Assembly: GCA_038883715.1 (NCBI GenBank)
Contig: JAVZLS010000002.1
Location: 1 to 64,000, forward strand
Length of the DNA stretch: 64,000 nucleotides
Direction: 5' to 3'
Source of the DNA: Candidatus Bathyarchaeia archaeon
GTDB taxonomy: Archaea > Thermoproteota > Bathyarchaeia > Bathyarchaeales > Bathycorpusculaceae
Below are positions 20,262 through 21,665 of the stretch, one piece after another (position 1 is the stretch's first letter; each line of letters opens with the position of its first letter). The position numbers were made by a program, and so were the translations under genes. Under the pieces are notes generated by a model. The model had not been told where the DNA came from, ran no database searches, and saw nothing but the letters and a program-made list of their open reading frames with translations.

Positions 20262-21665
20262 CTATAGGAGAAGTTTTAAGTTGTCGAACGCATGGAGGGC
20301 TTTCATTCCACGTTTTGTTATTTTAAAATACTTTCGCCCATCTTTTTCATAACTTGAAATCAGCCCATTCTTTGAAAGTTCGGTTAAATGTTGGTAAATT
20401 GCCGCTCTTGTCATCATTTTTCCGAGTTTTTTCCATAATTCATATCCGTAGGCATCCCTTTCACATAAAATTCTCAGTATTTTCTCTTTTGTGCTAAGCT
20501 CTAACCCAACCACAGCCGTTTTCCTTCTTTTGGTTAAGGCTTGGAGAATGTCTGTCGCCTTTAGCCCACTTCCAGTTATTAAGCATACAACTTTGTCCTT
20601 TTTGTCAATCATCCGTTCGTTCACAAGCTTTTTGAGCGCTGCGTAGGTTGCTGCGCTTGCTGGCTCGGCGAAGACTCCTTCATGCTTTGCAATTTCTTGT
20701 TCTGCTAAAAAAATTTCCTCGTCTGAAACTGATGTGGCGGTTCCTTTGGATTCTTTGATGGCTTTAAGGGCTAGTTTGCCATACCAAGGGTTTTTAACGA
20801 GGATAGCAAGTGCGTGGGTTGAAGGTTTTGTTTTGAGGGCTGGCTCCTCAAGGTTTTGCGTATACGCCCTAACTATTGGCGAGCATCCTTCGGCTTGAAC
20901 GCCAATCATCCTTGGAATGGATTTTATTTCGCCTCTCATTTCAAGCTCTTTGAAGCCCTTCAAAATGGCATATAGTGTTCCACCGCTTCCCATGGGTGCT
21001 ATAAACCAGTCTGGAATACCCATCTGCTCGTAAACTTCGTAGGCTATGGTTTTTAGGGCTTCTATGGATAGTGGATTAAATTCGGCGGATCCTTGATACC
21101 AACCCATTTCTTTGGCCAGTTCATCTGCTCTTTTCAGTGAATCGTCCACTATTTCCCCGTACTCTTCGATCACGGCGTCGTAGATGAGCATTTGGGCAAG
21201 TTTTCCTATATCCACGTTTTTCGGCACTATAACATGGCATGTTATTCCAGACTTGGCGCAGTATGCGGCCAAAGAAGCCCCAAAGTTTCCATTTGTAGCG
21301 CACACAACCGACTTATACCTCAAATCAACAGCGTTGGAAACAATTAGGGCGGCGCATCTGTCTCTAAAAGAGTTCGTTGGATTTCGCGTTTCATCCTTAA
21401 AATATAAATTGTTTAGCCTAACGTTTTTGGTAAGTCTCCTCGCCTTAATGAGAGGGGTTCCCCCTTCCCCCATGGAAAGGACATTTCTAACTTTTGGCAA
21501 GAATCGCTTGTAACGCCAAAAAGTGAACGGCCCAACGGATTTCGCTTTTTTAAGGGTTTCATTATCGCACTTATACTCTAGAGGACCGCCACATTTCTTG
21601 CAACTGTACTGCGGCGGATAAGCCTCAAACCTTGTGCTGCACGCTGTGCATTCCAGATAGAACAT
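20262..21665 (-). CDS. Threonine-synthase-like protein (catalytic Lys replaced by Arg) fused to a PadR-like wHTH; putative regulator
   Basis: Zn ribbon, GEGGTPL, KDETRNPTNSFRDR, PMGSGGT, EPASA, TGSGLK, then ILRIL..DAYGYELWK..AIYQHL.EL...GLI...RKYFKITKRG. Confidence 0.85.
   Translation of the reverse strand: MFYLECTACSTRFEAYPPQYSCKKCGGPLEYKCDNETLKKAKSVGPFTFWRYKRFLPKVRNVLSMGEGGTPLIKARRLTKNVRLNNLYFKDETRNPTNSFRDRCAALIVSNAVDLRYKSVVCATNGNFGASLAAYCAKSGITCHVIVPKNVDIGKLAQMLIYDAVIEEYGEIVDDSLKRADELAKEMGWYQGSAEFNPLSIEALKTIAYEVYEQMGIPDWFIAPMGSGGTLYAILKGFKELEMRGEIKSIPRMIGVQAEGCSPIVRAYTQNLEEPALKTKPSTHALAILVKNPWYGKLALKAIKESKGTATSVSDEEIFLAEQEIAKHEGVFAEPASAATYAALKKLVNERMIDKKDKVVCLITGSGLKATDILQALTKRRKTAVVGLELSTKEKILRILCERDAYGYELWKKLGKMMTRAAIYQHLTELSKNGLISSYEKDGRKYFKITKRGMKALHAFDNLKLLL

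Follow-up and report, generated by a model that had tools for sequence, protein, structure and literature searches.

The stretch of DNA analysed here, called the window below, comprises positions 1 to 64,000 of contig JAVZLS010000002.1 (GenBank assembly GCA_038883715.1) from a Candidatus Bathyarchaeia archaeon. An open reading frame (ORF) on its reverse strand, at 20262-21665 (-), encodes a protein of 467 amino acids in which a threonine synthase (TS)-like domain is joined to a PadR-type winged helix-turn-helix (wHTH) domain. We propose, with a probability of about 0.6, that this gene encodes a vitamin B6-responsive repressor, with the TS fold as sensor and the PadR wHTH as its DNA-binding part, and not a threonine synthase. 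The parts of this proposal differ in strength. From the sequence and its genomic setting it is very likely that the protein binds DNA and regulates the adjacent operon; that its effector is a B6 vitamer is probable and rests on association; repression is somewhat preferred to activation, the sign of regulation being the least certain step.

Both domains of the regulator are recognised directly. Residues 64-365 (20571-21476 (-)) match Pfam PALP, the fold type II pyridoxal phosphate (PLP) enzyme domain, with an E-value of 1.7e-77 (261 bits) and form the TS fold that we presume to be the sensor. Residues 396-458 (20292-20480 (-)), followed by a C-terminal helix, match PadR (PF03551) with an E-value of 4.3e-14 and 52.7 bits against a cut-off of 27, which bears out the original prediction, made from the sequence alone, that about 75 C-terminal residues form a PadR-like wHTH. 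The AlphaFold2 model of the protein has a mean pLDDT of 91.2 and a pTM of 0.78. In this model the assignment by DSSP gives helices at 391-402, 407-413 and 420-432, strands at 436-441 and 444-449 and a last helix at 451-466, that is, three helices, a beta hairpin wing and a terminal helix, with block pLDDT values of 82-95 over residues 391-460; a low-confidence linker (residues 370-390, 20496-20558 (-), pLDDT below 50) separates the two domains. Solved threonine synthases (2ZSJ, 2D1F, 6CGQ and 1UIM) are matched by phmmer with E-values of 1e-63 to 1e-53, and Foldseek superimposes the model on solved TS with target-normalised TM scores of 0.83-0.86.

Operator-like palindrome and target genes

The gene that follows the regulator on the same strand (19439-20191 (-)) encodes a 250-amino-acid S-component of an energy-coupling factor (ECF) transporter, which is presumed to be regulated and is a candidate transporter of B6 vitamers. 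Sixteen nucleotides upstream of its ATG lies a 22-bp operator-like palindrome, TAGTATAGTT-GT-AGCTATACTA (20208-20229, not assigned to a strand), and directly upstream of the palindrome is an A/T-rich, TATA-like stretch (20230-20241 (-)), read from the sequence as a probable promoter element; similar A/T-rich stretches stand ahead of the palindrome in other orthologous loci. When up to two mismatches are allowed the palindrome has a single match in the 1.33-Mb genome, and a reversed control pattern has none. At 24 of 29 orthologous loci, the window's included, at least 15 of the 20 specified positions are found between the regulator and the S-component gene; 20 of these sites are within 250 nt of the regulator's stop codon and the other four are more distant, immediately ahead of the S-component gene. 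In the remainder of the 29 loci the best match is 14 of 20 or lower. In the window's locus, the region upstream of the regulator gene included, the best match elsewhere is 12 of 20, and autoregulation through the same palindrome was therefore rejected.

The association extends across the class. Allowing up to three mismatches, the palindrome is found in 52 of 201 class genomes: in 42 of the 61 for which an orthologue of the regulator is listed and in 10 of the 140 others, one of these ten having a partial orthologue at a contig end. The reversed control pattern is found in 18 of the 201. Related genomes are not independent samples, which is a weakness in our case, and no p-value is attached to this enrichment.

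At 25 of 29 other loci a homologue of the S-component gene comes after the regulator gene; of the four that miss it, three end within 243 nt of the gene. In two genomes that lack the local S-component (L158 and L159) the palindrome and an S-component gene are found elsewhere in the genome. Twenty palindrome sites lying away from a regulator gene were fetched; 13 of them stand directly before S-component genes of family PF07155, and two before pdxS-pdxT, the PLP synthase genes (at 14 and 17 nt, in two genomes of one genus). The spacing between the palindrome and the start codons is short and fixed. At seven of these 13 S-component sites, in Lys-type genomes (defined below) and two others, a gene of the Amidohydro_2 family (PF04909) comes after the S-component or is part of one open frame with it (L157, L159, L161, L163, L164, L165 and L170), and its product is a candidate for a second conserved component of the regulon. 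An 18/20 match is also present beside a gene for a radical-SAM protein of about 312 amino acids in two genomes of a Lys-type family (L166 and L167), which may be a further target or a chance occurrence.

The identity of the S-component is one reason to think of vitamin B6. It belongs to PF07155 (E 4.6e-29), its sole match in the PDB at an E-value of 1 or below is chain S of 4HZU (E 1.3e-9), and it scores 23 bits with the riboflavin S-component model PRK13661, for which the cut-off is 99. Chain S of 4HZU is the Lactobacillus brevis protein HmpT/PdxU2, from which pyridoxamine was extracted (PMC4860826), and both PdxU and PdxU2/HmpT belong to PF07155 (PMC9997740).

The S-component gene is probably co-transcribed with the next gene, which begins 14 nt after it and encodes a protein of the AIR-synthase family (PurM superfamily; 18387-19424 (-), Pfam AIRS and AIRS_C). 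Of the 24 orthologous loci that could be assessed, 11 have this AIRS-family gene after the S-component gene, as do two of 14 loci of the second clade described below. Its product is a fifth PurM-superfamily paralogue that falls below all NCBIfam cut-offs, separate ThiL, HypE, PurM and PurL proteins being encoded in the genome. Identification as HypE was rejected, as it scores 125 against 251.6 bits and lacks the terminal PRIC motif of the genome's true HypE, a motif which we take to be a mark of HypE; identification as ThiL was likewise rejected (88 against 184 bits), the true ThiL being on another contig. That it is a candidate ATP-dependent enzyme of B6 salvage is pure conjecture.

The regulator has wHTH-bearing relatives in a second clade, of which 14 loci were found in the class. 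All 14 proteins have a PadR match in Pfam, and in each of them the site of the catalytic lysine of TS is occupied by M, L, I or V. This clade gives an independent view of the targets, with the same outcome. The divergent neighbours at these loci are pdxS-pdxT in two cases and homologous S-components, 46-49% identical to that of the window, in six. A motif, ATATATAAG-N6-CCTATATAT, is common to the intergenic regions of the pdxS-pdxT type and of the S-component type; it occurs (L037-L048) before pdxS, S-component and other genes. To judge from its letters the motif is TATA-like, and may be partly promoter rather than operator. When a second-clade protein was used as query across genome contigs, mostly wHTH-less bacterial TS genes were returned, with a wHTH in four of 79 loci, one of which was the query's own; at the three other wHTH loci (records titled Bathyarchaeia, Thorarchaeota and Hermodarchaeum) a divergent S-component gene is present in every case.

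Several observations weigh against vitamin B6 as the effector. Neither pdxST nor an S-component is nearby at six of the 14 second-clade loci. Five of the 20 extra palindrome sites have unrelated genes beside them (radical-SAM genes at two, a Fic/ABC pair at one and unassigned genes at two), and the palindrome precedes pdxST in two of the four genomes that have both an orthologue and PdxS, the two being of one genus. The S-component is distant from HmpT: among the HmpT residues named in the structural paper only Glu41 is identical, Trp76 being replaced by Tyr, His84 by Lys and Gln87 by Glu (counted along the alignment). PF07155 also includes riboflavin transporters. HmpT itself was first assigned to hydroxymethylpyrimidine (HMP) (PMC4860826). 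Furthermore, a gene of the TenA/THI-4 family lies directly downstream of one second-clade regulator (L047:3788-4426 (-)), near an S-component and an AIRS-like gene, and is the one hint towards the thiamine pyrimidine rather than B6.

It is thus conceivable, though improbable, that the protein is a regulator of the same kind with another effector, O-phosphohomoserine, threonine, serine, or HMP or its phosphate (HMP-P), and that the operon imports and processes that compound. The early assignment of HmpT, the nearest solved relative of the S-component, and the TenA gene both speak for this, as do the descent of the sensor domain from threonine synthase, the resemblance of the co-transcribed AIRS-family protein to ThiL and HypE, and the presence of a divergent, Lys-bearing TS paralogue beside the regulator in four of 29 loci. 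However, no palindrome is found between the regulator and that paralogue, the best match elsewhere in those loci being 13 of 20 or lower except for the L024 site before the S-component gene; a genuine ThiL is encoded elsewhere in the genome; and the positions of the regulator that align with the presumed substrate-phosphate binders of TS are replaced. Both the palindrome and the second-clade motif precede pdxS-pdxT, and HmpT was found loaded with pyridoxamine (PMC4860826). On this balance a B6 vitamer is preferred.

The genome as a whole offers a setting in which such a regulator would be useful. No PdxS was detected in this genome (completeness 90.3%); in the class, PdxS exceeds the cut-off in 29 of 201 genomes, with matches in 21 of 121 high-quality genomes, and most archaea of the class may be B6 auxotrophs. 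From the PdxK superfamily a single match exceeds its cut-off, an HMP kinase of the ThiD type (PRK08573, 650 bits). The genome has one EcfT gene, whose product would energise scattered S-components. The organism probably depends on imported B6, and it would be reasonable for such an organism to control its importer by a switch that responds to B6.

The lysine site of the regulator

In the regulator the canonical TS motif NPTGSFKDRG reads NPTNSFRDRC, with Arg101, encoded by AGA at 21363-21365 (-), opposite the SFKDR lysine in alignments with four solved threonine synthases; counted along the chain of 1UIM this is Lys61. The original prediction had described this replacement, and what it observed is confirmed in full. 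Since arginine takes the place of the Schiff-base lysine, the TS-fold domain is unable to form the internal aldimine. Other positions of the TS site are also replaced (1UIM numbering first): T85 by N125, T88 by F128, N154 by Ala, S155 by Glu and R160 by Ser. T88, N154, S155 and R160 of the Thermus enzyme are, we assume, the residues that bind the substrate phosphate. The cofactor pocket is nevertheless kept, with the Gly-rich phosphate loop, Asn127, the SF-DR motif, EPASA and TGSGLK; the three motifs that had been noted as retained, PMGSGGT (224-230), EPASA (334-338) and TGSGLK (364-369), are all present. GSGGT (226-230) aligns with GNAGN of 1UIM. In an alignment of 64 sequences from both wHTH clades N95, P96, D102, R103, G126, G226 and G228 are invariant and position 101 is variable.

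The arginine is conserved among close relatives. The 120 nearest homologues are 65-93% identical to the regulator, except for one identical fragment of 327 residues, and most have 461-490 amino acids; in precomputed Pfam annotation PALP and PadR are both present in all but two shorter records. At site 101 they have Arg in 115 cases, Ser in two and Met in one, two being unmatched by the search pattern, and Lys was found in none of the 118 that were matched. The arginine codons of 26 Arg-type orthologues from class genomes are AGG in 11, AGA in nine and CGN (CGT, CGC or CGA) in six. Arg has thus persisted while its codon moved into another family, from which Lys is two steps away. Over 28 orthologues the mean identity to the regulator is 62% for the TS-fold domain and 62.5% for the wHTH, and the TS-fold domain appears to be under purifying selection, conserved as strongly as the wHTH.

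These observations leave hardly any room for the idea that the arginine codon arose from faulty sequencing or assembly, or that an ordinary thrC has recently been inactivated by mutation. AGA is indeed a single transition from AAA, but the ORF is intact and the protein conserved, Arg recurs in 115 of 120 nearest homologues drawn from many assemblies, and six of the 26 Arg-type orthologues use CGN codons. Contigs from four hot-spring metagenome runs (three studies) cover the codon and have no difference at 21363-21365 among the 41 of 140 differences listed, which with 99 unlisted is weak support of little weight. None of the sequencing runs listed as holding the stretch is recorded as RNA, and two that are labelled metatranscriptomic are flagged as probable DNA. 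The computational checks suggested with the original prediction, on the conservation of Arg, on a separate canonical thrC and on read support, all went in its favour, that on read support weakly. The genome has two further TS-like genes, both with the lysine. One encodes 427 amino acids with the motif NPTGSFKDRES (PRK08197, 300 vs 303 bits; TIGR00260, 213 vs 167 bits) and the other 369 amino acids with NPTGSFKDRGS (PRK06450, 447 vs 301 bits).

Both of these paralogues share with the regulator an N-terminal CxxC...CxxC arrangement. In the regulator it forms a zinc-ribbon-like segment (residues 1-45, 21531-21665 (-)) with Cys6, Cys9, Cys22 and Cys25, which are invariant or nearly so in the 64-sequence alignment; the segment has a weak match of the DUF7129/FYVE type.

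It was foreseen that annotation pipelines would label the gene thrC, and they do treat the family as an enzyme. The regulator passes the NCBIfam equivalog model for thrC, TIGR00260 (217.9 vs 167.1 bits), and many of the records of its nearest homologues are titled "threonine synthase [Candidatus Bathyarchaeia archaeon]". Its best NCBIfam model is NF004170 (PRK05638), also named "threonine synthase", which has 442 positions and spans both domains (regulator residues 4-460 on profile positions 2-441); the score here is 409.1 bits, below the cut-off of 421.

Family history of the lysine site

An exhaustive HMMER search of 1.84 billion representatives clustered at 50% identity returned 1460 proteins at an E-value of 1e-30 or below, of which the best 150 were examined. 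Among these, the representatives without an aligned C-terminal stretch have Lys at the site in 68 of 68 cases. Where at least 45 C-terminal residues are aligned the site is varied: Leu in 19, Arg in 15, Ile in 15, Thr in five, Val and Met in four each, Phe in three, Ser, Tyr, Ala, Asn and His in one each, a gap in two and Lys in seven. Five of these seven Lys rows are proteins of 610-633 amino acids, set aside by length alone. Three additional Arg representatives are short or incomplete at the C-terminus. A FastTree phylogeny of 156 rows, from which fragments shorter than 380 amino acids were dropped, places 63 wHTH-less Lys proteins on one side of a branch with support 93. It also contains two clades of wHTH proteins, each with support 99: one of 37 rows, mostly Arg, that includes the regulator, and the second clade already mentioned, of 55 rows, with hydrophobic residues at the Lys site.

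It is pertinent to ask how likely it is that the protein is still an enzyme, a TS-like catalyst working without the internal aldimine or a bifunctional enzyme-regulator, with the wHTH as an add-on. Proteins that are both enzyme and regulator are generally known to occur, the domain has a conserved cofactor pocket and is under apparent purifying selection, and orthologues bearing the lysine exist (see below). Against this, the Lys site is hydrophobic or varied in the wHTH-bearing relatives while every listed wHTH-less relative has Lys; the positions of T88, N154, S155 and R160 of 1UIM are replaced; the regulator is below the cut-off of the NCBIfam model that spans both of its domains; and two Lys-bearing paralogues are available for catalysis. 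We regard an enzyme as decidedly unlikely and a regulator as the preferred reading.

The lysine is not, however, absent from the whole of the regulator's lineage. An orthologue with 48% identity or more is listed for 61 of the 201 class genomes, with Arg at the site in 27 and Lys in 34. The Arg-type genomes are from the window's own order and three other families, and the Lys-type genomes from two families (f18 and f15), the codons being AAG and AAA (L029-L031, L033, L174-L202 and L204). The Lys-type orthologues are about 48-55% identical to the regulator and share its remaining TS-site replacements; at position 128 they have His, Gln or Tyr, against Phe, Leu or Met in Arg-type proteins. They also have the same palindrome and the same S-component neighbours. 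The palindrome in the Lys-type families is mostly TATTATAGTT-NN-AACTATAATA, the third position of each arm differing from the Arg-type consensus (TATTATAG in the Lys-type arm vs TAGTATAG in the Arg-type), as expected if the regulator and its site drift together.

This lineage tells against part of what had been proposed. Because it has the same operator and targets with the lysine in place, Arg is not required for the regulatory role, and loss of Lys is not what makes the protein a regulator. Furthermore, the Lys-bearing members could bind PLP covalently or may even catalyse something. The original prediction had held that Lys in orthologues would overturn it; Lys is indeed carried in those 34 genomes, but with an unchanged palindrome and neighbourhood, and by none of the nearest homologues in which the site was matched. 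What survives is the regulator, supported by the conserved operator-like palindrome and the conserved target genes, and what does not is the change from Lys to Arg as its defining feature. The terms "catalytically dead" and "ligand sensor", as applied to the protein, are interpretations of its sequence.

A quick IQ-TREE phylogeny of 55 rows, rooted on six enzymes, bears on the order of events. All wHTH proteins form one clade in this tree (support 95 in the Shimodaira-Hasegawa-like approximate likelihood ratio test, SH-aLRT). Of the 13 Lys-type rows, 12 group together in a single clade (98), one representative (P0126) standing apart, and successive Arg-type rows surround this clade (sets of 14 and 21 rows, support 95 for each). 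An approximately unbiased (AU) test rejects the grouping of all Lys-less rows of the regulator's clade as one group (log-likelihood lower by 58.8, p 0.00035), the group having been named after the tree was seen, which makes this a weaker test. Either Lys would have been regained, AGR to AAR being one transition, or it would have been lost many times, and the nested position of the Lys-type lineage suggests that it was regained.

At four of the 29 loci (L019, L020, L024 and L025) a Lys-bearing TS paralogue, about 40% identical, is encoded divergently on the upstream side of the regulator gene, possibly as a remnant of the duplication from which the regulator arose.

Directly upstream of the regulator gene in the window is an ORF of 128 amino acids without a Pfam match (21741-22127 (-)). 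It overlaps by 133 nt the 3' end of the ORF of a family-2 glycosyltransferase (21995-23317 (-)), and probably one of the two calls, or a start site, is wrong.

Proposed mechanism and comparison with known systems

In the mechanism that we envisage, the TS-fold domain would bind one of the B6 vitamers, PLP being the most likely, in a reversible and non-covalent manner. Dimerisation of the protein would involve both the TS fold and the PadR helix, and the two wHTH domains of the dimer would be placed on the palindrome (20208-20229). The ligand-bound form would occupy the palindrome, which has the TATA-like element on one side and the start codon on the other, and would block initiation; it is because of this position of the operator that repression is inferred. 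Uptake would thus be repressed when B6 is plentiful and released when it is scarce.

A wider version of this reading can be framed, which is speculative and to our minds doubtful. The wHTH-bearing TS-like family would be the missing archaeal B6 regulator, sensing PLP without a Schiff base; its regulon would contain an undescribed salvage route, with the AIRS-family protein as an ATP-dependent B6-vitamer kinase of a new kind and the Amidohydro_2 protein, which in the Lys lineage is fused or adjacent to the S-component, as a second salvage enzyme; and the Lys lineage would have regained its lysine from an Arg ancestor. It concerns organisms in which PdxS and PdxK/PdxY were undetected, the search for PdxK/PdxY being non-exhaustive.

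If the proposal of a B6-responsive repressor is correct, a large archaeal family, present in Bathyarchaeia and at least some Asgard lineages, has been mis-annotated as a biosynthetic enzyme, and predictions of threonine synthesis are inflated. The family would be a natural test of a PLP pocket as a reversible sensor without a covalent link, with Lys-bearing and Lys-less sisters on the same operator. It would also point to candidate transporters and salvage enzymes for B6 among organisms mostly without PLP synthase; B6 transport has been called poorly studied (PMC9997740). Archaea would gain a B6-responsive regulator, where the bacterial PdxR/MocR proteins are reported as not present (PMC5320631). 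Our literature search, which did not extend to subscription journals, found no paper on a regulator in which a TS-like or other fold type II protein is joined to a PadR or wHTH domain, and the available parts of two comparative-genomics papers on B6 (PMC9997740 and PMC5320631) make no mention of one.

The closest parallel in function is the bacterial PdxR, of the MocR proteins, which likewise uses the fold of a PLP enzyme as sensor together with a wHTH. MocR proteins keep their Schiff-base lysine, which is replaced in the regulator described here. Their sensor is of the fold type I, aminotransferase-like kind and their wHTH is an N-terminal GntR domain, whereas that of the present protein is of fold type II with a C-terminal PadR wHTH, and no GntR match was found in it by Pfam. 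Apo-PdxR activates pdxST, while repression is what we would expect of the archaeal protein. Bacterial PdxR regulons comprise pdxST, pdxK and pdxU (PMC5320631). The set of genes linked to the regulator here, namely pdxST, PF07155 S-components and possibly the kinase-like AIRS protein, parallels this, by association only. The best reading is that the regulator is a functional counterpart of PdxR built from other parts, and not a MocR protein.

Compared with the enzymes from which its sensor descends (ThrC structures 2ZSJ, 2D1F, 6CGQ/6NMX and 1UIM/1V7C), the regulator has 36-40% identity, the same fold over about residues 50-373 and the same loop for the cofactor phosphate. It differs from them in lacking the Schiff-base lysine, in the changes at the positions of T85, T88, N154, S155 and R160, and in some 95 extra residues that make up the linker and the PadR wHTH. 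The architecture has already been modelled, as NF004170 (PRK05638), and propagated under an enzyme name, a name that is unfit for a protein without the catalytic lysine. With the PadR family (PF03551) it shares the wHTH and the C-terminal helix, and its presumed site is palindromic, as expected for a dimer. Typical PadR proteins are small and stand-alone, with the wHTH at the N-terminus; here, in contrast, the wHTH is the C-terminal 75 or so residues of a 467-residue protein and lies behind an enzyme-derived domain.

Enzyme-derived vitamin regulators are already known from Archaea, namely ThiR, with a ThiN-like domain, and RbkR, a fusion with riboflavin kinase. The design is the same, a domain from an enzyme of the pathway acting as cofactor sensor beside a DNA-binding domain, while the vitamin, the fold of the sensor and the DNA-binding family differ.

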